Positions 5,497 through 23,941 of a stretch of DNA of 64,000 nt are shown here, piece after piece. The position numbers and the translations under genes are program-made. Origin of the DNA: an uncultured Sporobacter sp. (GTDB taxonomy: Bacteria; Bacillota; Clostridia; Oscillospirales; Oscillospiraceae); contig OY776214.1 of assembly GCA_963675425.1 (NCBI GenBank), positions 2,316,978 to 2,380,977 of the forward strand, given 5' to 3'. The stretch's first letter is position 1. Each line of letters opens with the position of its first letter. The notes below the pieces were generated by a model. The model was not told the origin of the DNA. It saw only the letters and a list, made by a program, of their open reading frames with translations, and searched no databases.

Positions 5497-5551
5497 AATA
5501 AACCATCCATTCTTAATTTGCTAATAGTGAGATTAATTCATTTTTATACAG

Positions 5552-8633: not shown

Positions 8634-8976
8634 AACAATTCCTCCTCATAATTTTTATAGTTCATGCTGATCTTTTAAGGATATTTAGCCCAAATATAAT
8701 TCTCATCCCTTCCTTCCCTTCCTTCTTGATAGGCTATCTCTTTCCTTTCAGCACGTTCATTCACCCAATATATAGCCGGCAGATTTCATTTTCTTGCAAA
8801 TAATATTGAGTAATTATTGTAATCCAAGCTGTAAGAAATTAGCGGCTTATTCGTTCTTGGTTCCTGGAATACTTCCGCCTCTCATATCTGCTATGTATAT
8901 TCCGGGCATTTTTATATGCGGTTGAGCCTCTGTAAACATGGGGGCGTTCAAATATAATCCGTATTTTTACAGTGTA

Positions 8977-9285
8977 TATTTACGCCGTAAGATTATCACG
9001 TCGCTGTTCTAATAGCAATACCTAAATTAAATAGTTATGCTCGTCTTTTTTTGTTATTATTGTTATTTGTCAAAGGGGATTAGGGTGATGTTTCTTGCAG
9101 AATGCACATGACTTATCGACATACCGAGCTTTACAAACAGAATTTTATGCCGACAGGCAGGCGTTTAAAATTAACTGCAATTAATATTTACGCCGTAAGA
9201 ATATCATGCCTTTTTTCTAATAGCAATACCTTATTTAAAATCATTATGCGAACTTATTTTTGTTATTGTTTTCACTTGTCAAGGG
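8977..9285. promoter_or_regulatory. Duplicated ~105-bp intergenic block (8977-9078 and 9184-9285) with TTAC-N3-GTAA palindromes
   Basis: atatttacgccgtaaga-tatca...tctaatagcaatacct...ttatgc...tgttatt...ttgtcaa-gg occurs twice; third short copy tttacaatgtaagaatat near 9316-9333. Confidence 0.7.
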
Positions 9286-9348
9286 TCATTAAATATGTTA
9301 CTCTGATAATATAAATTTACAATGTAAGAATATAAAGGAGTTGATTAC

Positions 9349-9621
9349 ATGAATTGGGAACAGATCGTTATTTATAAAAAAGATGAGGTTGATGCTTTAT
9401 TAACAGAAAGAGGGATACTTGATGAGGACATAAAAAAAGTAATTTCGCAGGCTATAGAAAGCGGCGAAAAATTATACCAGGAAGAGGAGTACAGATTTCT
9501 GGCTAAAGCCAAGCTGGAGAGGTTTACAGTTTATGTGGAATATTCACCTGAAAATGACGGATTCCGCATCCATACAGGTTATAGCCATCGAGTTGATTTT
9601 AAATCAGAGCATGTAGAATAG
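9349..9621 (+). CDS. Small protein resembling the isolated C-terminal domain of the oxidoreductase/dicluster protein of DVU_155x-type loci
   Basis: LLTERGILDEDIKKVISQAIESGEKL...FTVYVEYSPENDGFRIHTGYSHR; AAGGAG RBS; family resemblance from recall. Confidence 0.65.
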   Translation: MNWEQIVIYKKDEVDALLTERGILDEDIKKVISQAIESGEKLYQEEEYRFLAKAKLERFTVYVEYSPENDGFRIHTGYSHRVDFKSEHVE

Positions 9622-9635
9622 GAGGTGTTTAATAA

Positions 9636-9827
9636 ATGGGTGAATGGTTATGTTCAACTTGTAAAGTAAAAATGGAAGAAGTGGATGATATCCAGATCTT
9701 TTATGGAGAAGTAGACTTGCCGGATGCATTAGGGATCAGATGCCCGAGCTGCGGCCGAGAATATCTATTGGAACAATTTGTGACGGATGAACTCATCGCT
9801 GCTGAAGAAATGCTTGAAGGCAAATAG
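9636..9827 (+). CDS. DVU_1557-family Zn-ribbon redox protein
   Basis: WLCSTCKV...IRCPSCGREYL...AAEEMLEGK; two CxxC pairs; GGAGG RBS. Confidence 0.8.
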   Translation: MGEWLCSTCKVKMEEVDDIQIFYGEVDLPDALGIRCPSCGREYLLEQFVTDELIAAEEMLEGK

Positions 9828-9838
9828 GAGAAACCTGA

Positions 9839-10576
9839 ATGGCGAAGACAGAAAAACCGTTGATTGAAGTATTTGGTCAGCGTCCTGGCCGGTTTAAGTT
9901 AGCGCTGAAGGGCGCTGAAATAGCAGGCATAAACTGCCGAAGTAAAGTTTTGGAAGTTGGCTGTTCTTACGGCGACACCTCGTTTTTGCTGGCGGAGTCC
10001 TTTGACTGTGAAGTAACCGGGATTGATTTAGAGCGTGAGTACATTGTCCAGGCCGCTGCCAGGACAGATCATACCGACCATAAAGTGCAATTTTGCGTTG
10101 CTGATGTGGTAAAAATGCCTTTTATGGATCAAGCGTTTGATTATATATTTTGCGAAGCGGCGTATTCTCTTTTAAAAGATAAAGAAGCTGCCGTAGATGA
10201 ATATCATAGAGTTTTGGGCGAAAAAGGAAAGGTAATTGTTAATGATTTTTATTTAAAAAGACAAGTTTCGGAAAACGTTCAAAAAAAGATGGATTTTATA
10301 CCGTGCTTTTATGGAATAAAAACTGCTGAAGAATATTGTAAGATTTTTAGCGAGAAAGGATTCAGTCAACTGTTGTTTGCTGATTATTCAAGTGAAATTA
10401 TCAGGATTTCAATGTGGCTGAGCAAAGCGTATGGCGTATCTTCCAAAGAATTGAACCGGCTGTTTGTCAAGCTTTTAAGCCAAAATGATGACGATCATTG
10501 TGATTGTTTAAACGACAGCAACGAATTTTTCAAGGAAGCCAGGCTGGGTTACGGCCAATTTATATTCGGAAAATAA
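9839..10576 (+). CDS. Class I SAM-dependent methyltransferase (DVU_1556-like by context)
   Basis: VLEVGCSYGDT motif I, VTGIDL, MPFMDQAFDYIFCE. Confidence 0.85.
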   Translation: MAKTEKPLIEVFGQRPGRFKLALKGAEIAGINCRSKVLEVGCSYGDTSFLLAESFDCEVTGIDLEREYIVQAAARTDHTDHKVQFCVADVVKMPFMDQAFDYIFCEAAYSLLKDKEAAVDEYHRVLGEKGKVIVNDFYLKRQVSENVQKKMDFIPCFYGIKTAEEYCKIFSEKGFSQLLFADYSSEIIRISMWLSKAYGVSSKELNRLFVKLLSQNDDDHCDCLNDSNEFFKEARLGYGQFIFGK

Positions 10577-10595
10577 TGATAAGAAGGGGATTCAA

Positions 10596-11384
10596 ATTAT
10601 TTTTGCAGGTGTAGATATTGGGTCGACAACGGCAAAAGCAGTATTGCTTGATGAGAATGAAGAAATTTTAGCGTCGGCAATTGTTTATACGAGCTTTGAC
10701 CGCAATGAAAGCGGTATGGAAGTATTAAATCTGGCATTGGAAGAATGCGGGAAATCATTAAAAGATGTAGAATATGTGGTTTCAACGGGTTATGGCAGAA
10801 GAGCCCTGAAGATATCCAATGATGCCATACCGGAGATCATTGGCCACGCTTTGGGAACCCAAAAATTATATCCCGGGGTACGGACCATTATTGACATCGG
10901 AGGCCAGGACAGCAAAGTCATCGCGCTTGATGAAAAAGGAATAATCGAAAAATTTGAGATGAATGACAAATGCGCTGCAGGAACAGGCCGCTTTTTTGAA
11001 GTTTTAGCAGGCCGTTTGTTAAATATATCAATGGATGAATTGGGGCCGCTTTATCTAAAAGCTGAAAATCCTTGTACAATCAGCAGTATGTGTACCATTT
11101 TTGCCGAATCGGAGATTATTTCCTACTTGTCGGAAGGTAAGCTCAAAGAAGACATCATTGCAGGAATGATTAATTCCGTAGCCCGCAGGGTGGTGGCCAT
11201 GGGTAAAACCGGGCAGATTCGATATGAAGAGCCGATTATTCTCTCGGGGGGAGTAGCCAAAAACATCGGGGCGGTAAAAGCCTTTTCAGAAATTATCGGC
11301 AAAGAAGTTCAGGCTATTGAAAACCCACAGTTAACGGGGGCAATGGGGGCGGCACTGAAAGCAAAGGACGAATTTACGAAATAG
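10596..11384 (+). CDS. 2-hydroxyacyl-CoA dehydratase/benzoyl-CoA reductase activase (ASKHA ATPase, HgdC/BadF-like)
   Basis: In-frame upstream of the ORF-track start: (I)IFAGVDIGSTTAKAVLL; STGYGR, IDIGGQDSK, MNDKCAAGTGRF, ISSMCTIFAESE, GGVAKN; probable ATT start at 10596. Confidence 0.93.
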   Translation: MIFAGVDIGSTTAKAVLLDENEEILASAIVYTSFDRNESGMEVLNLALEECGKSLKDVEYVVSTGYGRRALKISNDAIPEIIGHALGTQKLYPGVRTIIDIGGQDSKVIALDEKGIIEKFEMNDKCAAGTGRFFEVLAGRLLNISMDELGPLYLKAENPCTISSMCTIFAESEIISYLSEGKLKEDIIAGMINSVARRVVAMGKTGQIRYEEPIILSGGVAKNIGAVKAFSEIIGKEVQAIENPQLTGAMGAALKAKDEFTK

Positions 11385-11398
11385 GAAGGTGAACAAGG

Positions 11399-12793
11399 GT
11401 GAAGGATTTTGACGTGGTTGTAATCGGCGGTGGTTCCGGCGGTTGTGCCGCTGCAAGCAGGTCGGCCGATCTCGGGAAAAAGGTGGCGTTAATCGAAGGC
11501 AGAGGGAAAGAAGGCCTCGGCGGAACATGTATTAATAGGGGCTGTATACCGGCTAAAATACTTTTGGCATCCGCTGAAACGTATTCCGGGGTGCAGAAAG
11601 CCAAAGATTTTGGAATTGGGGTAACAGGCATCTCCTTTGACTATGAAAAAATCGAGCAGAAAAAACAGGCGTCAATCAAAACCTTGCGGTTCGGCTTGCA
11701 GAATTACATTCTTAAACCCAGAGGAATTGAAATTATCACCGGTTTTGGTAAGATAATTGACTCTCATACGGTAGAGGTGCATGACAACGGGCAGACAGAA
11801 CGGGTTCGGGGTGAAAATATAATTATTGCTTCCGGTTCCGAGCCGGCTATGATTCCATCTTTTCATATTGATGGCCATAACGTCATTACCAGTGACGAAG
11901 CTTTAGAGGTTCGGGAGATCCCCCCGAAGATTACAATTATCGGAGCGGGCGCCCTGGGACTTGAGTTTGCGCATTTGTTTTCAACGTTTGGCAGCAAGGT
12001 GACAGTTGTGGAAATGGCGCCTCAGGTCGTGCCGGCTTTGAAGGATAAGGAATTCACCGGTATGGTTCAAAAATACTTGGAGAAGCAGGGAATTACCGTC
12101 AAGACCGGAGTCAAAATCGACGGCGTAGAAGTCGTTGATGCAGGAAAGGTCGTTTCCAGTTTAAGCAACGGTGAGAAAATCGAAAGCAGTAAAGTGCTGG
12201 TCGCCATCGGCCGCAAACTGAATACCGAAAATATGGGGATTTCGGAATCAGGAATAAAAATGGAAAAGGGCTGTATTCTTGTTGATGATGAAATGAGAAC
12301 GAATATCCCTAATGTATTAGCGGTAGGAGATATCGTCCACGGCCCCCAGCTTTCCCATAAAGCGCAACGGGAAGGAATCGTAGCTGCCGAAGTGATTGCA
12401 GGACTGAGTACGAAAATGGATTATGAGGTTATTCCCTGGGCTATTTTTACACAGCCTGAAATTGCAGCGGTAGGGCTGACCAGGGACGAAGCGGAAGAAC
12501 AGGGAATTAAAACTATTGTCGGCTCCATGCCTTTGATGGCGAATGAAAAGGCCAATGTCATGAAAAAAACAACCGGACAGGTTAAAATTGTAGCTCGCGT
12601 AGATAACAAACAGGTAATTGGCGCTCAGATTTTTGCAGCTGAAGCTTCCATTTTAATTGGCGAATTGGCCGTGGCAGTAAAAAACAAAATTTCCATTGAA
12701 GGCTTATCCAACACGGTTCATGTTCATCCGTCCTTGTCCGAAGCGATTATGGAAGCGAGTAAGAGCAGCTTAGGCAAAGCCTTTCACAAATAA
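11399..12793 (+). CDS. lpdA: Dihydrolipoyl dehydrogenase-like flavoprotein disulfide reductase
   Basis: GGGSGG, redox disulfide GGTCINRGCIPAK, GAGALGLE, HVHPSLSE; GTG start. Confidence 0.92.
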   Translation: MKDFDVVVIGGGSGGCAAASRSADLGKKVALIEGRGKEGLGGTCINRGCIPAKILLASAETYSGVQKAKDFGIGVTGISFDYEKIEQKKQASIKTLRFGLQNYILKPRGIEIITGFGKIIDSHTVEVHDNGQTERVRGENIIIASGSEPAMIPSFHIDGHNVITSDEALEVREIPPKITIIGAGALGLEFAHLFSTFGSKVTVVEMAPQVVPALKDKEFTGMVQKYLEKQGITVKTGVKIDGVEVVDAGKVVSSLSNGEKIESSKVLVAIGRKLNTENMGISESGIKMEKGCILVDDEMRTNIPNVLAVGDIVHGPQLSHKAQREGIVAAEVIAGLSTKMDYEVIPWAIFTQPEIAAVGLTRDEAEEQGIKTIVGSMPLMANEKANVMKKTTGQVKIVARVDNKQVIGAQIFAAEASILIGELAVAVKNKISIEGLSNTVHVHPSLSEAIMEASKSSLGKAFHK

Positions 12794-12834
12794 ATTTCAA
12801 CGAAATTATTTACCCCAAAAAGGAGGCTAAAAGA

Positions 12835-13989
12835 ATGGAAAAAACTTTACGAGAATTGGATGAAGCAGCGAAAAAACGCCCCATTCAGCTGAAAGAGGCA
12901 AAGAAACAAGGCAAAAAGGTTATTCAATACACGGGTAATTTTATACCACCGGAAATGATTTATGCGGCAGGAGCGGAGCCGTATCTTATGTGCAGGGGCG
13001 GAGAACCTGAACCGCCGGACGCTGTCCTGGAGTATATGCTGCGTTTTATGAATCCGCTGGCCAGGTCCATGGCCGGTTATCACATGCTGGGCCTTGATCC
13101 TGTAACGCCGATATCTGATCTGATCGTGACCCAGCAGACCGATTGTCATGTAGGCAGGGTGACAGAACTGTTGGAATTTTTAAAACTGCCCATTCATAAA
13201 GTAGGTGTTCCCTCCGACTGGAAAAAAGGATTTACAGCTGAGTATTACTATAAGTCTTTAGATAAATTAAAAAAAAGACTGGAGGATATAACCGGCAATA
13301 GTATCACGAACGACAATCTGAAGAAATATATCGGTTATACCAACCGGATTAATCGAGTATTAAGAAAAATCGACGACCTGCGTAAAAAAGATAATCCGCC
13401 GCTCGGGGAAAACGAATTCATTCACCTCAATCATTATTCTTTGCTGTGCGAGCCTGAATTTGCAGCTGACAAACTGGAAGAACTATATGAAAAGATAAAA
13501 GACGCTCCCGGCAAGTTCCCGGAAAAAGCTCCCAGATTGCTTTTCGCGGGGCATGCCCTGGCAATCGGAGATTACATTGTCCCTAAACTGATCGAGGACT
13601 ATGGCTCCGTGATTGTTACAGAAATGCTTGATGAAGGAATCCGGCCTTTCAAGTTTGATATAGAAACCGAAGGGGATATGCTTCGTAATTTTGGGGAAAC
13701 CATGTTTTTGAAAAAGACACCTATTAATGTGTTCCAGCCTTCCTGGGAAGACAGGTTTGCCTACATGAAGCAGCTCATCAGTGACTATAAGGTAGACGGC
13801 GTAATTTGGTATCAATTATGTTTCGACGAAATTTACGACATGGAGTGTACCTGCCTGGCTAAATGGCTCGGTGAATTGAACATACCGCTTTTAAAACTGG
13901 AATCCTCTTATGAATACTCCAGGGAGGCAATGGGCCCGCTAAAAACAAGAGTTGAGAGTTTTCTCGAATCTATAAAAGGGAGGAAATAG
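12835..13989 (+). CDS. 2-hydroxyacyl-CoA dehydratase-family subunit (beta/HgdB/BcrC-like)
   Basis: IQYTGNFIPPEMIYAAG, LEDITGNSITNDNLKK, DYKVDGVIWYQLCFDE, LKTRVESFLE. Confidence 0.88.
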   Translation: MEKTLRELDEAAKKRPIQLKEAKKQGKKVIQYTGNFIPPEMIYAAGAEPYLMCRGGEPEPPDAVLEYMLRFMNPLARSMAGYHMLGLDPVTPISDLIVTQQTDCHVGRVTELLEFLKLPIHKVGVPSDWKKGFTAEYYYKSLDKLKKRLEDITGNSITNDNLKKYIGYTNRINRVLRKIDDLRKKDNPPLGENEFIHLNHYSLLCEPEFAADKLEELYEKIKDAPGKFPEKAPRLLFAGHALAIGDYIVPKLIEDYGSVIVTEMLDEGIRPFKFDIETEGDMLRNFGETMFLKKTPINVFQPSWEDRFAYMKQLISDYKVDGVIWYQLCFDEIYDMECTCLAKWLGELNIPLLKLESSYEYSREAMGPLKTRVESFLESIKGRK

Positions 13990-13990
13990 C

Positions 13991-15415
13991 ATGGCTACTA
14001 ATGTGTATGAAGAGTTTTTGGAGCTTTGTGCTTTTGAGCCGGAGGAAATACCGGAAATCCTGCCGCAATGGATCGAGGCCGCTAAGACTTTTGAGCTGAC
14101 GGAAGAGGACATCCGCTTCTCTATAGAAAAGTGGATCCCGGAGAATTGGGATATCCAGTATAGGGGTATCCGCAAGATGATTGGTGCTTGGATCAGGGAA
14201 CTGATTGAACTTAGCAAGGCAACGAAGTATAAAGAAGCGGGCGCCAAGATAATCTATGGGATCATACCGGCTATTACAACCAGTTATCAGGCGATGAAAT
14301 ACAGCGCCGGGGACAATATTTACATAAGTTTTCCCGACGCTATGCTGGTAACGGTCCTGAATGCATTTTTCCATAAAGTCAACCCCTACTTGGAATGTGC
14401 GGAGGAAAACGGCTTTACCTATGGCTGCCGTCATTGTGCGTTGAATAAAACAAGGATTGCAGCCCGCTGGAAAAAAGTGATCCCGGCTCCCGATGTGATC
14501 TGGTCCTGGGGGTTTAACTGCGACGAAGGACCGAAAACGGATGAATATATTCAATGCCTGTTTGATAAGGATTGGAAATACGTTATTACCAGGCTTCCGC
14601 ACGATACCAGTTTTGGGGAGAACGACGACGAACTGGAAGACCGGGTAGAATTTGTGGCTCAGGAGATCAAGGACGGCCTGAGACAAATTGAGGAGATAAC
14701 GGGAATTGAAATAACGGAAGAGCATATGAAAAAAGCGCTGCAAGATTCCAACAGGTATGCGTTTAAAAACGGGATGCTCGTTAGTTTAATGTCCAAAGCT
14801 GATCCCGTGCCTCTGGGTGGAAGTGATATCGTCAATTTCCAGCAGCCGATGGGTGTGCCCTTTAATACCGGTCTAAAATACCTGGAGGAAGCGATTGATT
14901 TGACCATCAAAGAAGTCAGACAAGCCATAAAAGACGGGAAAGGCGTGGCTCCCAAAGGCGCTCCCAAAGTAGCCTTTTACGGCGTGCCTATTGCCGTACC
15001 CTGGGTTGACAGAATGTTCCGGGAGAACGGGGTTGCCCCTACGTTAAGTTTTAATCTGTCGCCAACGAAAAAAATGCTGATGCCTCAAAAATATACGGAC
15101 CCGTATATGGCAACAGCCGAACAATGGTTAAGAATGCCCTTGGGCATGAACATGAGAAGTGAAACAGATACCATGGTGCAAAAAATAAAAGATAATAAGC
15201 CGGATGCCGTGGTTATGGGTTTCTTCGACTTTGACAGGTGGCTCGGCGCCCAGCAAAAGATGGCGGCGAAGCTTATGGAAGATGAGACGGGGGTGTCTAC
15301 TTTTTATATGGAAGCGGACTGGTGGGAAGACAGGGACTATAGTCCGGAAGCCCTTCGTACCAGGATAGAAAGTATTTCCCAGGTATTAAAGCTTAAAAAA
15401 ATAAGCAATGAATAG
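13991..15415 (+). CDS. 2-hydroxyacyl-CoA dehydratase-family subunit (alpha-like), paralog 1, with N-terminal extension
   Basis: CRHCALNK, GFNCDEGPK, LEEITGIEITEEHMKKAL, EADWWEDRDYSPEALRTRIESI. Confidence 0.85.
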   Translation: MATNVYEEFLELCAFEPEEIPEILPQWIEAAKTFELTEEDIRFSIEKWIPENWDIQYRGIRKMIGAWIRELIELSKATKYKEAGAKIIYGIIPAITTSYQAMKYSAGDNIYISFPDAMLVTVLNAFFHKVNPYLECAEENGFTYGCRHCALNKTRIAARWKKVIPAPDVIWSWGFNCDEGPKTDEYIQCLFDKDWKYVITRLPHDTSFGENDDELEDRVEFVAQEIKDGLRQIEEITGIEITEEHMKKALQDSNRYAFKNGMLVSLMSKADPVPLGGSDIVNFQQPMGVPFNTGLKYLEEAIDLTIKEVRQAIKDGKGVAPKGAPKVAFYGVPIAVPWVDRMFRENGVAPTLSFNLSPTKKMLMPQKYTDPYMATAEQWLRMPLGMNMRSETDTMVQKIKDNKPDAVVMGFFDFDRWLGAQQKMAAKLMEDETGVSTFYMEADWWEDRDYSPEALRTRIESISQVLKLKKISNE

Positions 15416-15425
15416 TATTGAGCGA

Positions 15426-15561
15426 AAGCATAGCCAGTTAATGCTTAGTGTATAATAATTATTGGCCAGAAATAAGGAGGAATAGCGAAACTATTCCTCC
15501 TGTATACGAACTTGTTAATGTTGCCAACGTTTACCTGATACATGCCGGCTAATGGCTGTGC
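15426..15561 (+). other. Structured intergenic segment with a strong hairpin
   Basis: 11-bp perfect stem aggaggaatag/ctattcctcct (15475-15501); 15428-15440 can pair imperfectly with 15550-15561. Confidence 0.45.
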
Positions 15562-15635
15562 TTGCTTTTAGAATAAAATTAAGGTAATGTTTTCTATAGG
15601 GCAGTATCAATAATAATTGGAAGGCGCATGAGGCT

Positions 15636-17057
15636 ATGAATAATAATATTTATAAAGAGTTTTTAATGCTGACCGGTTTTGAAAAAGAAGAAATTGCAGA
15701 GTATTTGCCTGAATGGATAAAAGCCTCAAAAAAATTGGGTATTTCTGAAGAGGATATGAATCATGCTGTTAGAGAATGGCTACCCAAACACTGGAGTATT
15801 AACTTAAGGGGAATTAGGAAATGTATTGGCGCTTATATCAGAGAAGTAATTGAAATAACAAAAATATTTGAATATAAACAAAACGGAATTAAAGTGGTTT
15901 ATGGCTCTTTACCGGCTAATCCGATTAGTTTTCAGGCGATCAAAATAAGCGGCGGAGAAAAGGTTTTTGTGGGTTATCCGGGAATTCACATTGTTACAGT
16001 CTTGGGTTCCTTTTTTCATAAGACCTCGGCGTTTACTGAAAAGACTAATAAATGCATTCTGAATGCCGGTTGTCCTCACTGTGGCCTGACCAAGATGAGA
16101 TTGAGTGCCAAAATGGCGGAAGTAATTCCTTCGCCCGACGCCATTTGGAGCTGGGGATTTAATTGTAACGAAGCACCAAAAATGGATGAGTTTATTCATT
16201 GTTATGCTGATGCAAATTGGAAATCAGTATATTGCAGCCTTCCCCATGATACCTATTTAGGGGAAATAGAAAATGAAAGCCAAGAGAGGGTAAAGTATTT
16301 AGCTTTGCAAATTGAAGACGGGCAGCGGCAAATTGAAAAAATAACCGGGATCAAAGTAAGCGAGCAGCATTTTAACCAGGCCCTGGAGGATGCCGACCGG
16401 TTATTGCAAAAAGTTAATTGTCTCAATGATTTGGTTATTAATGCGGACCCGCAACCCTTAAGCGGCAATGAATTATCCCTTATCGAACAGATGATAACCA
16501 TAGCCTTTAATACCGGTTTAAAATATATGGAAGAGGCTATTGATATCACTATCGAGGAAGTGCGGGATTTAATTGACAGAAAAGAAGGAATTTTGCCGGT
16601 TGGAGCGCCTAAGCTGGGTTGTTATTTTGTCCCCTTCTGCGTGCCATGGGTTAATGGGTTATTCCTGGAAAACGGCGTGAATTTATCTTTTAGCACGTTC
16701 TATACAGCGGCGGATAAATTCCTGGAAAAGTCAAGCTATCAGGACCCATTCAGCATAATTGCTGAACAATGGCTGCAAATGCCGGGCAGTGTCAATATAG
16801 CATACGAAGTGGAACTGAATTGCCGGATACTTAGTAAATATAAGCCTGATGCCATGCTGCTTGGTTTCTACAGCTTTGAAAGATGGGTGGGGGTACATCA
16901 CAAAATAATTGTTAATAAGATTGAAGAAAAAATGAAAATACCTCATTTTTATATAGAAGGGGACATCTGGGAAGACGGGATGTTTCGCCTGGATGATTTA
17001 AGAACAAGGATCGAAACTATTTGCAATTTCTTGAAAATGAATAAAATGATTATTTAG
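15636..17057 (+). CDS. 2-hydroxyacyl-CoA dehydratase-family alpha-like paralog 2
   Basis: Colinear with 13991 protein: CPHCGLTK, GFNCNEAPK, ADPQPLSGNE, EGDIWED, LRTRIETI. Confidence 0.85.
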   Translation: MNNNIYKEFLMLTGFEKEEIAEYLPEWIKASKKLGISEEDMNHAVREWLPKHWSINLRGIRKCIGAYIREVIEITKIFEYKQNGIKVVYGSLPANPISFQAIKISGGEKVFVGYPGIHIVTVLGSFFHKTSAFTEKTNKCILNAGCPHCGLTKMRLSAKMAEVIPSPDAIWSWGFNCNEAPKMDEFIHCYADANWKSVYCSLPHDTYLGEIENESQERVKYLALQIEDGQRQIEKITGIKVSEQHFNQALEDADRLLQKVNCLNDLVINADPQPLSGNELSLIEQMITIAFNTGLKYMEEAIDITIEEVRDLIDRKEGILPVGAPKLGCYFVPFCVPWVNGLFLENGVNLSFSTFYTAADKFLEKSSYQDPFSIIAEQWLQMPGSVNIAYEVELNCRILSKYKPDAMLLGFYSFERWVGVHHKIIVNKIEEKMKIPHFYIEGDIWEDGMFRLDDLRTRIETICNFLKMNKMII

Positions 17058-17080
17058 ACTGTTTATTAGGAGCAGGTTAT

Positions 17081-18511
17081 ATGGGGGCGTTTTATGAAAA
17101 AATTCTTTCTCTTTGCGGCTTTGATCAGCAAGAAATAGCAAAGAATACCGGCAAACTACGCAGGGCTTGCGAAAAATTTGGGATTGATGAAGAACAGGTA
17201 GCCTTTGCTGCAGAGAAGTGGATACCTCAAAATTATGATTTAAAGCTGGAGGGAATAAGGAAACTTATTGGCGTTTATATCCGTGAATTTCTCAGCATTT
17301 TGGACCTGTCTCTGGATAAAAATGATAATCGTAAAATTGTCTACGGGACGGTTCCTTCCCCTGTGCCTCTTTTTCATGCCTTGAAAGACAGCTGCAAGGA
17401 GGGAATATATACTGGTGCCCCGGATTTTGTTTTCATGATCGTGTTAAACAGCTTTTTTCATTGGCGTAATATAGGTTTGGAAAGATTGGAGGAACAAGGA
17501 TTTACTCAAGCTTGCAGGCATTGCGCCCTTAATAAAATGCGGGCATTTATCTATTCCGATAATTATATTCCCAGTCCTGATATCGTCTGGACCTGGGGAA
17601 CTGCTTGTGATGAGGCGCCTAAAACTGAAGAGTTTATCCAATTTTGTTATGGTAAACAGTGGTTTTATGTTTCCACAAAAATGCCGCATGATACCTGCAA
17701 AGATGAACAGGGCGACAAGGAGCGGATAACATATCTGGCCAGGCAAATACAAGACGCCGTTTATACAATTGAACAAAAATGCCGATTAAAACTATCCCAA
17801 GAAGCTGTGAGGAAGGCAATGTATAATTGGGGTAAAATTACGGCCAAGATATATTACCTGAATACTTTGATTGCCAATGCCGACCCGGTCCCACTGGGAG
17901 GTAATGAGCTTTCCCTGATTAATTCATTGCAGCTGGCGCCATTGAATATAGAGGTTGAGCTTATTGAGGAGTCTATTGATATTATCATTAAAGAAGTAAA
18001 GGAACGGATCAGAAACGCAGAGGGAATATTACCACGTGGAGCTCCGAGGTTAGGTTGCTATCTTGTCCCTTTTTGCCTTCCCCATATTGTTAAACATTTT
18101 GAAAGGGCCGGTGTTGCTTTAACATTTAATACTTGTATGATGAGGGCAGGCATTCCGGATAATAAAGTACATGGTAGCTGTAAAGTGAGAGATAATAAAA
18201 CGGTTAAGCATCCTTATGAAATAATAGCCGGACAATGGCTGAGCTTGCCGTTGTTTAATAATGTTTTTTATGAAGCAAAGGCAATTGCTCATTTGCTTGC
18301 CAAGTATAAGAATGATGGTTTGATACTCGGTTTTTTCACATTTGACCGTTGGTTGGGGGCACACCAAAACCTTCTGAAAATCATACTCAAAGAATCAATT
18401 GCGAAACCGGTTTTTATAATGGAAGCAAATTTCTGGGATGAACGGTTTAATAATAAACAAAGAATAATAAATCAAATTGAAAGTATCGGAAGATTATTGG
18501 AGAAAGCGTAA
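17081..18511 (+). CDS. 2-hydroxyacyl-CoA dehydratase-family alpha-like paralog 3
   Basis: CRHCALNK, GTACDEAPK, ADPVPLGGNE, EANFWDER. Confidence 0.83.
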   Translation: MGAFYEKILSLCGFDQQEIAKNTGKLRRACEKFGIDEEQVAFAAEKWIPQNYDLKLEGIRKLIGVYIREFLSILDLSLDKNDNRKIVYGTVPSPVPLFHALKDSCKEGIYTGAPDFVFMIVLNSFFHWRNIGLERLEEQGFTQACRHCALNKMRAFIYSDNYIPSPDIVWTWGTACDEAPKTEEFIQFCYGKQWFYVSTKMPHDTCKDEQGDKERITYLARQIQDAVYTIEQKCRLKLSQEAVRKAMYNWGKITAKIYYLNTLIANADPVPLGGNELSLINSLQLAPLNIEVELIEESIDIIIKEVKERIRNAEGILPRGAPRLGCYLVPFCLPHIVKHFERAGVALTFNTCMMRAGIPDNKVHGSCKVRDNKTVKHPYEIIAGQWLSLPLFNNVFYEAKAIAHLLAKYKNDGLILGFFTFDRWLGAHQNLLKIILKESIAKPVFIMEANFWDERFNNKQRIINQIESIGRLLEKA

Positions 18512-19108
18512 ATGCCAAGAAAAAAAGTGATATTTGAAAAACAGAAAATTATTGATGCTTCTTTTCATATTATTAAAAGTGAGGGCAATGAAGCTTTCTC
18601 GGCCAGAAGATTAGCCACGGAACTAAACATTTCGTCAATGACTGTCTATAATTATTACAAAAACATTGATGAAATAAAAAAAGAAGTTATTATTAGAGGT
18701 TTTAGTATTCTTTACAAGATGATTTTTCGTGATATGGAAAACAAAAAGGAAAAGTTGGATGAAGACGGTATTGGTTGTTTATGCAGAATTATCGCGCTCA
18801 ATATGATGAATTTCGCTTTGGAAAATAAAGAAATATATATTTTGATGTTTACTGAGTACGGTTATAAGTTTAGAAATGATCACGAGATCAGGCTTTTTTA
18901 CAATTTCTTGCCGCAACTAGCCAATAGCATTAAACTTGCTCAATCTGAAGCGCAGGAATTAAAAAAAAGGTGCTATATATTTGAAAGCATGATTCAAAGG
19001 CTAATTATGGAAAAATTAAATAAGCTATATGATTATTCCCTGGAAGAATATAATGATTATATTGATTTTAGTTTAAAGCATTTATTTAGGATCGATTCAG
19101 AAGGATGA
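18512..19108 (+). CDS. TetR/AcrR-family transcriptional regulator
   Basis: N-terminal HTH SARRLATELNISSMTVYNYYKNIDEI; TAA-ATG coupling to the upstream gene. Confidence 0.92.
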   Translation: MPRKKVIFEKQKIIDASFHIIKSEGNEAFSARRLATELNISSMTVYNYYKNIDEIKKEVIIRGFSILYKMIFRDMENKKEKLDEDGIGCLCRIIALNMMNFALENKEIYILMFTEYGYKFRNDHEIRLFYNFLPQLANSIKLAQSEAQELKKRCYIFESMIQRLIMEKLNKLYDYSLEEYNDYIDFSLKHLFRIDSEG

Positions 19109-19117
19109 GGTGGAAAA

Positions 19118-20455
19118 ATGAATAGTATAACTGACACGAAAAGTCTATGTCCGGAATGTCTGAACATAATCCCGGCGCATTATGTTGTTGATAATAATAA
19201 TGTCTATTTACATAAAGAATGTCCTGAACATGGTCCGTATAAAGCCCTGGTATGGAGAGATGCCGAGTTATATGAACAATGGCAATCACAGAGTACCCAT
19301 GCGGAAAAAATGGAAAATGGCATTCCCCCGGTAAAGGGGTGTCCCTTGGACTGCGGCTTGTGTACCGAACATGAGGGAGGGACCTGTACAGCCGTTGTGG
19401 AAGTTACTTATCGCTGCAATATGAATTGTCCCGTTTGTTTTGCGGATAGTGCTCAAGAAATTTTCGAGCCGGACATCGATAAAATCCGGGAGATGTTTGT
19501 TGCTGTCCAGAATGAACAAAACACCCTTTGTTCGGTCCAAATAAGCGGAGGGGAACCAACAGTGAGAGATGATCTGCATGAGATTATCCGGTTGGGGAAA
19601 GAGATGGGGTTCGAGCATATTCAAGTTAATACGAACGGCTTGAGAATAGCGGAAGACTTTAATTATTTGCAGCAGCTTAAAGATAGTGGCGCTGATCTAA
19701 TATATTTGCAGTTTGACGGACTGAATGATGACATCTATCAAGCGCTTCGCGGAAAAAAAATGCTTGATACCAAGTTGAAGGCCATCGAAAACTGCCGGGC
19801 TGTTAATATTGGGGTCCTTTTGGTGCCGACAATTGTTCCCCAAGTTAATTTTTCTGAAATAGGTCGGATTATTAATTTTGCCAGAGAACAAATGCCCATA
19901 GTCAAGGGAATCCACTTTCAGCCTGTAAGTTACTTCGGTCGTTTTCCGGTAAGCAGCCCGCAGGATGAGGATAGAGTCACGCTGGCTGATATTGTCAAAG
20001 GAATCGAAGCGCAGACCCAGGGAGAAATAAAAGTTAGGAACCTTGTTCCCCGTAAAAGGTTCAATTCTCACTGCGCGTTCAGCGGATTGTTTTATTTACA
20101 GGATAATGGGAAGTTTCAGCCTATTACCCAAAACAAAACAGAGGAAGTGCCCGAACCCGAAAAAACGACTCAGGATTTTGTGGCCAAGGCAAATCAGTAC
20201 ACCAAAAACCATTGGCAACTGACAAGCGATCCTCAGAAGGAAAAGCAGACGCCTCAATCCGGAAGCCTGGCGAAAAGAATAAAAGACTATACCCTGTCGC
20301 TAACCGGTATGCCTTTCCAGGACGTTTGGAATATTGATATAGGCAGGCTAAAGGGCTGTTGTGTTCAGGTGGTTGATAATAAGGGACAGCTAATTCCACT
20401 TTGCGCTTTTCATCTGACCAGTACAAAAGGGAAAAGGTTGTATCGCAATGAATAA
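19118..20455 (+). CDS. Radical SAM protein, TrsS/MJ0619(Tes)-like architecture, copy 1
   Basis: N-terminal CPEC...CPEHG, GCPLDCGLC, CNMNCPVC SAM motif, SGGEPT, C-terminal HCAF, GCCVQV, PLCAF. Confidence 0.9.
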   Translation: MNSITDTKSLCPECLNIIPAHYVVDNNNVYLHKECPEHGPYKALVWRDAELYEQWQSQSTHAEKMENGIPPVKGCPLDCGLCTEHEGGTCTAVVEVTYRCNMNCPVCFADSAQEIFEPDIDKIREMFVAVQNEQNTLCSVQISGGEPTVRDDLHEIIRLGKEMGFEHIQVNTNGLRIAEDFNYLQQLKDSGADLIYLQFDGLNDDIYQALRGKKMLDTKLKAIENCRAVNIGVLLVPTIVPQVNFSEIGRIINFAREQMPIVKGIHFQPVSYFGRFPVSSPQDEDRVTLADIVKGIEAQTQGEIKVRNLVPRKRFNSHCAFSGLFYLQDNGKFQPITQNKTEEVPEPEKTTQDFVAKANQYTKNHWQLTSDPQKEKQTPQSGSLAKRIKDYTLSLTGMPFQDVWNIDIGRLKGCCVQVVDNKGQLIPLCAFHLTSTKGKRLYRNE

Positions 20456-21758
20456 ACAACGGGACAGGGCATTTTTAATTAAAGAAACCGTAAGCTTATG
20501 CCCTCGCTGTCTGAAGCGGATCCCGGCCAGAATAGAGGAAGTAAACAGCGAGATATATATGAATAAAAGGTGCCCCGAGCATGGCGAATTTCAAACGGTT
20601 ATCTGGCGGGACAATAAGGAAAACTATCTGCAATGGCTGGAATATGGCGGGGGAGAGTCTTTCCTTTCTTCGGAAATACAATCCGACTCCGGTTCAGGAT
20701 GTCCTCATGACTGCGGGCTGTGTGAAGACCACCGGCAGGAAATTTGTTCAGCAGCAATTATGGTTACCAACCGATGCAATCTTAATTGTCCGGTTTGCTT
20801 TACCCGGAGTCCTGAAGAGCATTATTATGAACCTGATTTAAACAGTATTAGAAGTATGTATGAATTTTACCTAAATTCGTGTGGTGAACCATATCCTGTG
20901 GAATTATGCGGGGGTGAACCTACGGTAAGGGATGACCTGCCGCAAATCATTGCGTTGGGAAAGCAATTGGGTTTTGATTATATCCAGCTCAACACGAATG
21001 GCATTAGAATCGCCCAGGATCAGGAGTATTTACATAAGTTAAAAAATGCCGGATTAACAACCGTATACTTGGGATTAGACGGAATATCGGAAGAGCCTTA
21101 TAAATATTCTTCCGGGTATTATCTGGGAAAAAGCATTCTAAGTTATAAGCTGCAGGCTATTAAAAACTGTGCGGAAGCCGGTTTGGCTGTGATTTTGGTT
21201 CCCTGTGTTATTCCCGGGGTCAATGACAGTCAATTAGGAGAAATTATCCGTCTGGCGAAGAAATGGATGCCGGCGGTTAAAGGCGTTCATTTTCAGCCAA
21301 TCAGCTATTTCGGCAATTATCCTGTCGAGCCTCAAAATAAAGACAGGATTACCATACCGGAAGTTTTACGGGCCATCGAAGAACAAACCGGTGGCGAGGT
21401 AAAACGGGATCATTTTCTGCCGACGGGCTGCGAGCATCCCCAATGTTCCTTTAATGGATTTTTTATGATGGCGAAAAATGGAAAGCTGCAGGCTTTGACC
21501 AAATACCAAAAAAGAGAGCAGCGGGAGAGTGAGCCCGCAAAAAAGACGCGTCGTTTCACCAAAACCCAATGGATATATAATGAGCGGATGTCTTTAACCA
21601 TAGGAGGAATGGCGTTCCAGGATGCCTGGAATGTTGATCTTGAAAGATTAAAGCGGTGTATTATTCATATTATCTGCTCTAATCAAAAATTTGTTCCTTT
21701 ATGCGCCAAGTATCTGACGGGTGAAAATGGGTTAAAAATCTTTCCGGGGATAAGCTGA
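20448..21758 (+). CDS. Radical SAM protein, TrsS/MJ0619(Tes)-like architecture, copy 2
   Basis: CPRC...CPEHG, GCPHDCGLC, CNLNCPVC, GGEPT, GCEHPQCSF, RCIIHI, PLCAK; overlaps copy 1 by 8 nt. Confidence 0.9.
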   Translation: MNKQRDRAFLIKETVSLCPRCLKRIPARIEEVNSEIYMNKRCPEHGEFQTVIWRDNKENYLQWLEYGGGESFLSSEIQSDSGSGCPHDCGLCEDHRQEICSAAIMVTNRCNLNCPVCFTRSPEEHYYEPDLNSIRSMYEFYLNSCGEPYPVELCGGEPTVRDDLPQIIALGKQLGFDYIQLNTNGIRIAQDQEYLHKLKNAGLTTVYLGLDGISEEPYKYSSGYYLGKSILSYKLQAIKNCAEAGLAVILVPCVIPGVNDSQLGEIIRLAKKWMPAVKGVHFQPISYFGNYPVEPQNKDRITIPEVLRAIEEQTGGEVKRDHFLPTGCEHPQCSFNGFFMMAKNGKLQALTKYQKREQRESEPAKKTRRFTKTQWIYNERMSLTIGGMAFQDAWNVDLERLKRCIIHIICSNQKFVPLCAKYLTGENGLKIFPGIS

Positions 21759-21769
21759 GGTATTTATTT

Positions 21770-23134
21770 ATGAATGGCATTGTGAAGATGCAGGACGGCC
21801 TGTTCAGGCTGTGCAGGAACCAGATTACCGAAGAAAAGCAATTCGGGCAGGAAAAAAATCTGACGCCGGACGCTAAAATCACGAATCAAATATTTGAGGA
21901 ATTCCGTTTATATAAATTAAAGAAAACGCTGCAGTACGTTTATGATAAAAGTAAATTTTACCGTGAGCTTTTCGACCGGCATAACATATTACCGGAAGAT
22001 ATTCAGTCTATACAGGACTTAAAAAAGATCCCATTAACGTCCTCCCAGGACCTGGCTGCCAGGGGGTACGACTTTCTATGCCTGTCGCAGGGAGCAATGG
22101 AAAAAGCTGTTACCTTTACCAGTTCGGGGACTGTTGGCCCTCAGAAGAAGATCTTTTTTACCGCAGGTGATCTGGAAAAGATGACAGATTTTATGGGTGT
22201 GGGCATGAATACTGTAACCGGGGCGGATGGTGTTGTCCAGATCCTGCTTCCCAGTGGGCCGGTCATGGGTCAAGCCGATTTGCTGGCCCAGGGAGTTCGG
22301 AAAATGGGAGCGGAAGCTGTTTATACAGGGATGTTTGTTCCCAGCGAAGAGCAGATTCAAGCAATTATTAAGTATGGAAGCACTGTGATTTTTGGCGAAA
22401 CCAGATTGATTTACCGCATAACAAAAGAGATGGAAGATAAGTACGATCTAGCTAAATTGGGCGTTAAGACACTCTTCGTAACAACAAGTCATCTTTCGGA
22501 TGTTATGCGTCAAAATCTTGAAACAGCCTGGAATTGTCAAATAGTGACCCACTATGGTCTGACTGAAATGGGCCTGGGCCTGGCAGTTGATTGTCCTTAT
22601 GGTGAGGGTTACCACACCAACGAGTTAGATGTAATTGCCGAGCTTGTTGATCCGAAAACAGGTGAGGTTTTGCCGGACGGAAAAGAGGGCGAACTGGTAT
22701 TTACGACGATCACCAGGGATGGGATGCCGTTAATCCGTTACCGGACGCATGATATAGCCACGTTAACCTCTCAAACTTGCCCCTGTGGTTCTCATTTAAA
22801 TACAATCAGCCGAATCAACCGCAGGTTGGAATCCATTGTGCAAATAAGCCCGGAATTCAGTATTTATCCCGCTTTATTTGACGATGTTTTGTTTAAACTA
22901 CCCGAGGTAGTAGATTACGAAATTTACCTGGAGAAAAAGGACGGGAAACAAAACCTTATATTTGAAGTGGAGCTTACTGCAGAGAGTGAAAATGTAAAAA
23001 AAGAAATCATACGGCAATTACAGAATAACGAAATTATTATGAAATACTTTGATTTGCCGGTGATAAAAACCGTTCCCCCGGGAGCTTTAAAGGGTGGGGC
23101 ACATTTTAAAAAGATGATTAGAGTTTTACCTTAG
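21770..23134 (+). CDS. AMP-dependent CoA ligase, PaaK/F390-synthetase-like (DVU_1553-like by context)
   Basis: FTSSGTVG P-loop, HYGLTEMG, GELVFTT, PLIRYRTHD. Confidence 0.88.
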   Translation: MNGIVKMQDGLFRLCRNQITEEKQFGQEKNLTPDAKITNQIFEEFRLYKLKKTLQYVYDKSKFYRELFDRHNILPEDIQSIQDLKKIPLTSSQDLAARGYDFLCLSQGAMEKAVTFTSSGTVGPQKKIFFTAGDLEKMTDFMGVGMNTVTGADGVVQILLPSGPVMGQADLLAQGVRKMGAEAVYTGMFVPSEEQIQAIIKYGSTVIFGETRLIYRITKEMEDKYDLAKLGVKTLFVTTSHLSDVMRQNLETAWNCQIVTHYGLTEMGLGLAVDCPYGEGYHTNELDVIAELVDPKTGEVLPDGKEGELVFTTITRDGMPLIRYRTHDIATLTSQTCPCGSHLNTISRINRRLESIVQISPEFSIYPALFDDVLFKLPEVVDYEIYLEKKDGKQNLIFEVELTAESENVKKEIIRQLQNNEIIMKYFDLPVIKTVPPGALKGGAHFKKMIRVLP

Positions 23135-23215
23135 TAGGAATTTTTGTCTTGAAAGTATTTAACCGGGACTTACCGCAAACGCGGACATAATAATTTTAAG
23201 ATTTGAGGTATCGCT

Positions 23216-23860
23216 ATGGAAAACAAAACATCAGGAATACAAAGCCGGTCCGAGGCGGCGGTTATACCCGCGCCCGAACCCGATCCCAAAAGCATGTTCG
23301 GCGTAGATAAAAACATAAATATGGCGACCATAGACGATTGGCTTGGACGCGGCGACGTTCTTTACAGGGATGTCAGGATGCTGTTTGACCCGGCCGAATA
23401 CGCCACCATCGGCGGCAATCAGGAACTGTCCGAAACGATCACAGGTTTCAAAATCGTTCCCCATCCTTACCTTGCGACGCTTATGAAGCTCCCGGTCAAG
23501 AACGCCTATTTGGGCGATACGCTCTTTACGCTTACGTGGGATAAAAAGGGCGCGATCACGTCGGCGACAGCTAATTACAAGGAATCACTGACTATCCTTG
23601 AGGAGCTCTTCCCCAAAAACAAAAAAATATTCATTATGTGCGGCGGCGGCGGTTATGCCTCCATGACACGGGCGCTCCTGATCCATCTGGGTTGGAACGC
23701 GAACGACCTGTATAATATCGGCGGAAACTGGGCCTATAAAGGCGGTAACGCGCTCAAACTCATCGAGTACCCGGAAGAAACGGGCGGCGACACCCTTTAT
23801 GCGCTTTGGAGGGCCGACTATGCGCTGATCGATTTTACCAGACTTCACAAAGCGGAGTAA
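23216..23860 (+). CDS. Rhodanese-like domain protein
   Basis: YRDVRML, FIMCGGGGYAS active-site loop, YNIGGNWAY. Confidence 0.7.
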   Translation: MENKTSGIQSRSEAAVIPAPEPDPKSMFGVDKNINMATIDDWLGRGDVLYRDVRMLFDPAEYATIGGNQELSETITGFKIVPHPYLATLMKLPVKNAYLGDTLFTLTWDKKGAITSATANYKESLTILEELFPKNKKIFIMCGGGGYASMTRALLIHLGWNANDLYNIGGNWAYKGGNALKLIEYPEETGGDTLYALWRADYALIDFTRLHKAE

Positions 23861-23902
23861 CACCGCTTTCCGCGCCGGCGGGCCGGGACGGCATCAGCAG
23901 TT

Positions 23903-23941
23903 AAGTGTGTAAACCGGAAATACGGTTTACACACTTTTTTC
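23903..23941 (+). terminator. Intrinsic terminator
   Basis: aagtgtgtaaaccg-gaaata-cggtttacacactt followed by a T tract. Confidence 0.75.

Follow-up and report, generated by a model that had tools for sequence, protein, structure and literature searches.

Introduction

The archaeal tetraether lipid synthase GDGT-MAS, or Tes (MJ0619), has been solved in two structures (PDB 7TOL and 7TOM; Lloyd et al., 2022, PMC9433317) and carries four metal sites: a Cys3His mononuclear Fe, a Cys3His [4Fe-4S]N cluster, the CX3CX2C radical S-adenosylmethionine (SAM) cluster and a Cys3Met [4Fe-4S]C cluster (PMC9433317). A single turnover yields a substrate-sulfur adduct, a sulfur-bearing lipid, at the C-terminal 3Cys+Met cluster (PMC9433317; PMC13459092), and the paper itself draws a parallel to the sulfur-inserting radical SAM enzymes (PMC9433317). 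Met439, which is labile, and Tyr459 are strictly conserved across 1000 archaeal GDGT-MAS homologues (PMC9433317). Here, we describe two overlapping genes for enzymes of this fold, TrsS-A and TrsS-B (hereafter A and B), in a 64,000-nucleotide stretch of DNA (the window) from an uncultured Sporobacter sp. (GCA_963675425.1, contig OY776214.1, positions 2,316,978 to 2,380,977).

TrsS is catalogued by NCBIfam as ‘radical SAM (seleno)protein TrsS’ with a DVU_1551-DVU_1557 neighbourhood, and a 2026 review in AEM (PMC13188914) credits it to Haft & Tolstoy (2025, mSystems). We found no paper that mentions DVU_1553, DVU_1556, DVU_1557, DUF5714, DUF7479 or PF23545, and a limited literature search found none describing the A/B pair. 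We find that the pair is a distinct, monophyletic and obligately paired subfamily with a defined asymmetry, its own non-molybdenum partners and cultured gut bacteria among its hosts, which is new here.

Results

A and B are intact TrsS proteins with the fold of GDGT-MAS

The two genes and their metal-site motifs are laid out as follows (aa, amino acids; nt, nucleotides).

19118..20455, + strand: TrsS-A, radical SAM enzyme, upstream member of the pair, 445 aa, with all four Tes-type metal-site motifs
20448..21758, + strand: TrsS-B, radical SAM enzyme, downstream member of the pair, 436 aa
20448..20455, + strand: 8-nt A/B overlap, ATGAATAA (A stop at 20453-20455, B start at 20448-20450)
A C11/C14/C35/H38 and B C18/C21/C42/H45: rubredoxin-like Cys3His site, from translations and conservation
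A C75/C79/C82/H85 and B C85/C89/C92/H95: CPxDCGLCxxH site, from translations and conservation
19415..19438, + strand: codons of the A radical-SAM motif CxxxCxxC (C100/C104/C107), invariant in 126/126 A-type proteins
20775..20798, + strand: codons of the B radical-SAM motif CxxxCxxC (C110/C114/C117), invariant in 114/114 B-type proteins
20357..20404, + strand: A C-terminal site GCCVQV...PLCAFH (C414-C415...C429), aligning to RCCIHY...PFCTYN of 7TOL
21657..21704, + strand: B C-terminal site RCIIHI...PLCAKY (C404...C419), from sequence and conservation

Neither open reading frame (ORF) has an internal stop, as judged from the ORF calls and translations, and a pairwise protein comparison gives 41% identity (E 2e-126). 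A preliminary description of this DNA had reported two overlapping paralogs, each with a rubredoxin-like motif, CPxDCGLC, CxxxCxxC and C-terminal Cys, and we found both ORFs intact and every one of these motifs present in both proteins. No in-frame TGA occurs in either gene, in the ORFs or in their translations, and A and B are therefore Cys forms rather than selenocysteine (Sec) forms, as that description had also proposed. A purine tract, GGGAAAAGG, lies directly 5′ of the overlap ATGAATAA, and this tract, together with the 8-nt overlap that places the B start inside the end of A, implies that the two genes are translationally coupled.

Both proteins contain the Pfam domains Zn_ribbon_HMPTM and Radical_SAM. 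Both score above the 490-bit cut-off of the TrsS equivalog model NF045646 (553.6 bits for A, 512.9 for B) and below the 450-bit cut-off of the Tes model NF045702, the second-best model (374.7 and 368.5 bits). The TrsS scores lie well outside what chance would give, and a search of the whole genome confirmed both matches. By sequence, the closest solved structure, and the sole close one, is GDGT-MAS/MJ0619 (7TOL, E 7e-89). AlphaFold2 models of A (pLDDT 89.6, pTM 0.92) and B (pLDDT 91.8, pTM 0.93) matched 7TOL and 7TOM in Foldseek with query-normalised TM scores of 0.82 and 0.81, respectively, at 32-33% identity, while the next-best fold for either model was MoaA (TM 0.43-0.49). A and B are thus TrsS family members with the Tes/GDGT-MAS fold, in agreement with the family assignment made in the preliminary description.

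The likeness to GDGT-MAS extends to the metal-site motifs: the rubredoxin-like Cys3His, the N-terminal [4Fe-4S] Cys3+His and the radical-SAM motifs are intact in A and B, the C-terminal RCC...PFC region with its labile Met has a counterpart in both, and Met439 itself is retained as A M398 and B M388. In contrast, Tyr459 (CCIHY) is replaced by Val in A (CCVQV) and by Ile in B (CIIHI), and Gly takes the place of MJ0619 Cys438 in both. A and B are also ~60-70 residues shorter than the 506-aa archaeal enzyme in the stretch that links the radical-SAM core to the C-terminal motif; this part of GDGT-MAS holds the helical lipid pocket, while the A and B models have few helices there. Both are bacterial proteins in a non-lipid gene context. 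Because they score below the NF045702 cut-off, have Tyr459 and Cys438 replaced and are shorter in the lipid-pocket stretch, we regard A and B as Tes-shaped yet not Tes. No alignment was obtained between the middle of MJ0619 and a Tes-like bacterial fragment.

A is conservative, B is streamlined, and both are under purifying selection

To describe the asymmetry between A and B we refer to the C-terminal half of single-copy TrsS, which has six conserved Cys and the Met of an AMAFQD motif: C1 and C2 in PSxC-xxxx-C-xFHG, C3 and C4 as SCC/CxC ~25 residues on, C5 in RC and C6 in PFC. Both paired forms lack C3 and C4. In A, C1 is replaced by Arg or Gln and a second Cys follows C5 (the ‘CC’). Among B sequences, 56% retain C1; B has a single C5, the second Cys of the CC being gone in 90%, and it carries a ~30-aa deletion, spanning two helices of the A model, before its GGMAFQD motif.

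Across 126 A-type and 114 B-type proteins, CxxxCxxC and C2, C5 and C6 (C319/C414/C429 of A and C333/C404/C419 of B) are present in 100%; the conserved Met is found in 88% of A-type and 100% of B-type sequences. The invariant set of C2/C5/C6 and Met agrees with the published count of three Cys and one Met for the C-terminal cluster of GDGT-MAS. From the sequences, the candidate ligands of this cluster are the C414-C415/C429 site with C319 and M398 in A, and the C404/C419 site with C328, C333 and M388 in B. We considered whether proteins without the CC/CxC motif have also lost the C-terminal cluster and did not adopt this reading: C2/C5/C6 and Met are kept, and MJ0619 itself apparently lacks the first Cys of CxxxxC (FYPVPSV).

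The SAM cluster and GGE motif are kept in both proteins, GGE being present in 100% of the 114 B-type sequences, and each type has a private Cys near that motif. The A-specific C138, five residues upstream of GGE, occurs in 93% of A-type proteins; the B-specific C154, in ELCGGEP beside the SAM-binding GGE, occurs in 98% of B-type proteins, and A and single-copy TrsS have Ser at this position. An intact N-terminal CPxDCGLC motif is found in 52/52 A but in only ~18/54 B: B has lost it across Oscillospiraceae and Lachnospiraceae and retains it in Dehalococcoidia, in this genome and its congener, and in others. Mean patristic distance is greater for B (1.57) than for A (1.34). In a comparison of this genome with the congener, A has a ratio of nonsynonymous to synonymous substitution rates (dN/dS) of 0.16 and B one of 0.12, so purifying selection acts on both and neither is decaying; together with the invariant motifs, this makes both look active. 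A conservative A with the full electron-transfer chain, beside a streamlined B with N-terminal cluster loss and a Cys of its own, points to divided labour rather than redundancy.

The pair is old, co-inherited and kept together

Tandem pairs are rare among TrsS-bearing genomes: 2/21 in a sample of 399 Clostridia genomes, one more genome in the same genus, and 1/20 above cut-off in Desulfobacterota. B nonetheless has hundreds of relatives at 45-75% identity, above its identity to A, and in 5/5 contig look-ups the B-type gene directly followed a Zn_ribbon_HMPTM/Radical_SAM (A-type) gene and was itself followed by an AMP-binding ligase. A B-type profile scan of species-representative genomes recovered ~50 species in Bacillota, Chloroflexota, Desulfobacterota and Spirochaetota. 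Database proteins were typed as A or B by best phmmer score and motifs. Carriers include Sporobacter, many metagenome-assembled genomes (MAGs) of gut Oscillospiraceae, Schaedlerella arabinosiphila DSM 106076, Cuneatibacter sp. NSJ-177, Faecalicatena, Peptostreptococcaceae, Anaerovoracaceae, Sedimentibacter, Dehalococcoidia/Chloroflexota, Desulfomonilaceae, Desulfovibrionaceae, Oceanispirochaeta and Sphaerochaetaceae, so that the cassette is widespread in anaerobes from gut and sediment.

The A/B/ligase triad was complete in 49/54 non-redundant loci, as A-B-ligase in 29 and as B-ligase-A in 20. Two of the 54 have no ligase call (in L061 and L068 the order is A-B and the contigs stop 85 and 318 bp beyond B; in L085 it is B-A). 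A and B both occur in 51 of the 54; in the other three the contig breaks off inside the ligase, 1.1-1.5 kb beyond B and short of where A would be expected. Thus no B without A was seen among the 54 loci where the flank was long enough on both sides, and in the loci sampled the two are never more than one gene apart. No A-B fusion protein occurred among the matches listed, from which proteins longer than 1.75x the query length were excluded by a filter. In L056, L061 and L072 (A-type) and L099 (B-type), the ORF scan split the gene into two or three consecutive ORFs; frameshifts, MAG assembly errors or overlapping calls are possible causes.

Phylogenetic trees, rooted on three Tes-like bacterial homologues and built by quick searches with Shimodaira-Hasegawa-like approximate likelihood ratio test (SH-aLRT) support only, place A and B as reciprocally monophyletic sisters nested within single-copy TrsS. 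Supports were 92 for A, 99 for B and 100 for A+B in a 50-sequence tree; in a 141-sequence tree the clades held 52/52 A (87), 55/55 B (99) and 107/107 A+B (99). Sister clades this old rule out a local duplication as the origin of the pair. A-A and B-B patristic distances over 51 loci correlate with r = 0.89, and these mirrored trees, together with the sister clades, fit a single duplication, after which the two copies diverged in parallel and were transferred laterally together. The preliminary description had suggested sequential or heterodimeric radical steps, and that two-enzyme arrangement gains comparative support from the old sister clades and from their occurrence together with the ligase wherever the flank suffices; the accompanying idea of C-C or C-S bond formation on the ligase product is treated here as a proposal.

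The pair lies in a non-molybdenum cassette

The operon around the pair reads as follows.

~9349 to 23936, + strand: operon, ending at the terminator
9349..9621, + strand: 90-aa protein, a homologue of the last ~85 residues of the oxidoreductase NF045663 (E 7.7e-20, aligned at 675-757 of the 759 profile positions); found again in other cassettes
9636..9827, + strand: DUF7479/DVU_1557-like 63-aa Zn-ribbon mini-protein ending ...EEMLEGK (PF24292 43.3 bits, cut-off 27; NF045645 30.8, cut-off 60)
9839..10576, + strand: DVU_1556-like, ArsM-like SAM methyltransferase (NF045667 117 bits, below the cut-off of 155; ArsM models 1e-21 to 1e-16)
10644-11384, + strand: acyl-CoA dehydratase-type activase (TIGR00241, 226 bits)
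11399-12793, + strand: dihydrolipoyl-dehydrogenase (Lpd) equivalog (TIGR01350, 471.8 bits, cut-off 408.8)
12835..18511, + strand: redox module of one double-cubane/HgdB-like subunit and three HGD-D paralogues; the same beside A/B in most loci
18512..19108, + strand: TetR-family regulator (PF00440), 9 nt upstream of TrsS-A
21770..23134, + strand: DVU_1553-family adenylate-forming ligase, PaaK/LuxE-like (NF045666 340.3 bits against a cut-off of 300), separated from B by 11 nt
23216..23860, + strand: 214-aa protein, weakly rhodanese-like, with MCGGGGYAS loop IFIMCGGGGYASMTRA (PDB 6mxv E 9e-4; Pfam Rhodanese E 0.13); also in the congener G009
23903..23936, + strand: strong intrinsic-terminator-like hairpin (14-bp stem and T run), the likely operon end

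Across loci, the cassette core is constant (A, B, ligase, mini-protein, 90-aa protein and methyltransferase) and the redox module varies. It consists of HAD/double-cubane cluster protein (DCCP)-like enzymes, activase and Lpd in most loci, and of HdrA-like, FlpD and CCG proteins in Chloroflexota and some Desulfobacterota, these Hdr-type two-TrsS cassettes being without Lpd. The molybdopterin aldehyde oxidoreductase (AOR; NF045668), full-length NF045663, XdhC-related proteins and DVU_1551 are all absent from the operon in the window. The pair is thus the ‘two-TrsS’ version of the cassette, in which an ATP-driven HAD/double-cubane-like reductase with Lpd, or an Hdr-like module, replaces the Mo aldehyde oxidoreductase.

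The 214-aa rhodanese-like protein occupies the slot that DUF5714, which is faintly related to C_GCAxxG_C_C, takes in most other cassettes. A TetR gene also stands 5′ of A in L053, L056, L061, L066 and L077. The 715-bp region 5′ of the operon contains a ~110-nt segment twice (8971-9082 and 9179-9291, spacing 208, 72-86% identical) and a third partial copy at 9308-9333. Each copy has a box TTTAC(G/A)(C/A)(C/T)GTAAG, with dyad symmetry in the first two (TTACG-C-CGTAA), and the repeats at 8971-9333 are perhaps candidate operators for the TetR regulator at 18512-19108. They match no Rfam family, and no riboswitch or other RNA was found in the operon (no Rfam match at E <= 0.1).

Some cassettes hold further genes. 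In L033, L067, L070, L072 and L076, from Lachnospiraceae and relatives, there is a carrier of ~97 aa with a Biotin_lipoyl domain, and an LplA-type ligase stands beside the A/B/ligase triad in the first four of these, not in L076. In the Oceanispirochaeta locus L032 (= L064), a SufC-like ABC ATPase and a SufBD-core protein lie between the activase and the methyltransferase (4871-6476), and an unannotated 451-aa protein lies directly 5′ of TrsS-A.

Most single-copy TrsS loci sampled share the molybdenum-type arrangement

The genome, a single 4.6-Mb contig, encodes a third TrsS 0.95 Mb from the pair.

G000:C1:1378000-1397000: third TrsS locus (L009), in which all listed genes pass the NCBIfam cut-offs

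This locus contains a DVU_1551 transferase, the molybdopterin aldehyde oxidoreductase NF045668, the NF045663 oxidoreductase, TrsS, a DVU_1556 methyltransferase, a DVU_1553 ligase and an XdhC-like factor. It is one of 11/14 single-copy Clostridia loci with the canonical AOR-diclust-MTase-TrsS-ligase-XdhC-DVU_1551 arrangement. The pair shares several of these components: its DVU_1553 ligase scores above the NF045666 cut-off, and homologues of DVU_1556, DVU_1557 and the NF045663 C-terminus are encoded in its operon. In contrast to single-copy TrsS, it consists of two co-inherited paralogues in a clade of their own, and the CC/CxC motif found in 97% of the single-copy proteins sampled is missing from both A and B, as is the first Cys of CxxxxC from A. 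The pair operon has no Mo aldehyde oxidoreductase, XdhC, DVU_1551 or full-length NF045663; a HAD/double-cubane-like reductase, activase and Lpd stand in place of the AOR set, and its methyltransferase and mini-protein have diverged to below the NCBIfam cut-offs.

The preliminary description had set GCCVQV of A against RCIIHI of B in the context of Cys versus Sec. This contrast is uninformative about Sec, because a single Cys at the C-terminal CC site is also usual in single-copy TrsS (RCSLHV) and no Sec form of TrsS was found among the 399 Clostridia and 251 Desulfobacterota genomes sampled; ‘TGA inside’ matches in relatives were rejected as Sec codons, being terminal stops only. Larger differences, which that description had missed, are the CC/CxC loss, the deletion in B, the B-specific Cys near GGE and the non-molybdenum cassette.

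Three further Clostridia loci (L044-L046, in G160, G224 and G198) encode Tes-like homologues of 460-496 aa that score below the TrsS cut-off. They have another C-terminal Cys set (C1, CxC, and ECVH for RC) and no Met at the Met439 position, and none of the screened cassette genes lie nearby.

The mini-protein ends in an invariant Lys, and one A-type TrsS is fused to a sirtuin

The DUF7479 mini-protein ends in Lys in 35/35 cassette homologues, within the motif (E/Q)MLEGK. SIR2 proteins are a lysine deacylase family, and one A-type TrsS (P0213, L133:10001-12079) is a 692-aa fusion of a complete SIR2 domain, with readable NAD-binding glycine motif, HG motif and Zn-ribbon Cys pairs, to TrsS. Its cassette is arranged B-ligase-[SIR2-A] with HGD-D genes, DUF5714 and an Lpd-like gene, and its conserved Met is changed to Lys (SGKGFQD).

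This genome encodes the Lpd equivalog of the cassette and lacks an LplA/LipB catalytic domain as well as GcvH and LipA. We rejected missing lipoylation genes as a general trait of cassette hosts, LplA being present in 7/7 other cassette genomes examined, the congener G009 among them.

Discussion

On balance, we favour a reading, with somewhat better than an even chance of being correct, in which A and B act as a hetero-oligomer or in consecutive steps on a ligase-activated acyl group and carry out two coupled radical C-H functionalisations, probably with C-S bond formation. The ligase would activate a carboxylic acid and possibly load it onto the C-terminal lysine of the 63-aa DUF7479 mini-protein. 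Each TrsS would then use a 5′-deoxyadenosyl radical to remove H from one unactivated carbon, and the C-terminal 3-Cys and Met site, predicted to hold a [4Fe-4S] cluster, would capture the carbon radical as a C-S bond, as in GDGT-MAS. Because the pair is obligate, it is most simply read as one enzyme for each of two carbon sites, and the product would be doubly thiolated or cyclised, to be processed by the ArsM-like methyltransferase and the disulfide-reductase module.

Sulfur insertion is proposed here by mechanistic analogy with LipA, BioB, MiaB and RimO, whose auxiliary cluster is sacrificial or binds substrate; these enzymes combine a radical-SAM cluster with an auxiliary [4Fe-4S] cluster that has one non-Cys ligand, as is predicted for A and B. 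Thiol/disulfide enzymes (Lpd, Hdr-like) adjoin the pair, and some cassettes include a lipoyl carrier with LplA, or SufBD. Unlike those enzymes, A and B have a Tes-like fold with two additional N-terminal metal domains, and LipA and MiaB models are absent among their HMM matches.

Several points weigh against this proposal. The TrsS family is catalogued but uncharacterised, and the substrate, product and bond type suggested above are predictions. The assignment of C2/C5/C6 and Met as cluster ligands is alignment-based, the GDGT-MAS paper not naming its three Cys. Most B orthologues have lost the N-terminal cluster, and B could therefore serve a different role that is not equivalent to that of A. 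Co-inheritance and mirrored trees would be expected of any two operon genes and are no proof of physical interaction, and strict A-B coupling is not universal, because the ligase stands between B and A in some loci.

These same observations bear on the alternatives. That A and B are independent enzymes, acting on different substrates or distant intermediates and adjacent only through their shared operon, is compatible with the B-ligase-A order of 20 loci, in which direct adjacency is evidently not required, and with mirrored trees of the kind any operon partners would produce. We nevertheless think it unlikely, since A accompanies B wherever the flank is long enough and the two always lie within one gene of each other, since the 8-nt overlap here argues for stoichiometric co-production, and since a single duplication has been retained through the clade's whole history in four phyla. 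In another alternative, only A would be catalytic and B would be a partly degenerate accessory that scaffolds A, delivers substrate or gives a second SAM-derived radical or H atom via Cys154. B has indeed lost the N-terminal auxiliary cluster motif in ~36/54 species and the second Cys of the CC in 90%, has a ~30-aa deletion and shows the longer mean patristic distance (1.57 against 1.34), but its CxxxCxxC, GGE, C333, C404, C419 and Met are present in 100% of 114 sequences, its dN/dS of 0.12 is below that of A, it scores above the TrsS cut-off and it keeps every metal motif in this genome, so that we hold an accessory B to be rather improbable.

Three further readings concern the chemistry itself. 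The fold and all metal-site motifs shared with GDGT-MAS, the retained Met439 and the rank of NF045702 as second-best model would suit Tes-like C-C coupling by A and B, with a transient sulfur adduct; the product would be either a lipid that is macrocyclic or spans the membrane, or a small molecule cyclised by a C-C bond. However, the Tes scores of 374.7 and 368.5 lie below 450, Tyr459 is replaced by Val and Ile, the lipid-pocket stretch falls well short of its length in the 506-aa archaeal enzyme and has few helices, and the genes nearby encode disulfide reductases, a methyltransferase and a CoA-ligase-type enzyme rather than lipid-synthesis enzymes; C-C coupling is accordingly an outcome we expect with little probability. 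We give equally little credence to a role as metallocofactor maturases, by which A and B would build or repair an uncommon Fe-S or other metal cofactor of a neighbouring low-potential enzyme in the manner of NifB or HydE/G. TrsS cassettes do adjoin unrelated low-potential metalloenzymes (AOR, HAD/DCCP-like, Hdr-like), NifB and HydE are among the weaker Foldseek matches, and one cassette has SufBD with a SufC-like ATPase, yet the ligase, SAM methyltransferase and Lys-ended mini-protein suit small-molecule or protein-arm chemistry better, and one maturase for all is unlikely because the partner enzymes carry different cofactors. A more specific idea, doubtful in our view, is that the cassette builds a novel lipoyl-like arm: the ligase, as an LplA analogue, would acylate the mini-protein Lys, A and B would form a ‘split LipA’ inserting one sulfur each, and the resulting dithiol/dithiolane arm would be cycled by Lpd or the Hdr-like module as an electron relay for the HAD/double-cubane-like reductase. 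In single-TrsS cassettes the arm would be a monothiol, served by CCG/Hdr-type reductases. The Lys of 35/35 mini-proteins, the fusion of a sirtuin with an A-type TrsS, the sulfur adduct formed by GDGT-MAS, SufBD in one cassette and the presence in this genome of an Lpd equivalog without LplA/LipB, LipA or GcvH are consistent with the lipoyl-like arm; against it stand LplA in 7/7 other cassette genomes, the genuine lipoyl carrier and LplA of the Lachnospiraceae cassettes and the missing Lpd of Hdr-type two-TrsS cassettes.

Bacterial ‘Tes homologues’ of this type should not count as tetraether-lipid (GDGT) biomarker genes, because they fall outside Tes on the comparisons made here. TrsS cassettes are common in strict anaerobes, including many gut Oscillospiraceae and Lachnospiraceae; the obligate, asymmetric A/B pair with its defined partner set offers enzymologists a concrete design, and the cultured carriers Schaedlerella arabinosiphila DSM 106076 and Cuneatibacter sp. 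NSJ-177 exist. If two coupled, probably sulfur-inserting steps are indeed divided between A and B, such a split system would be a new route to protein-bound or small-molecule dithiols.

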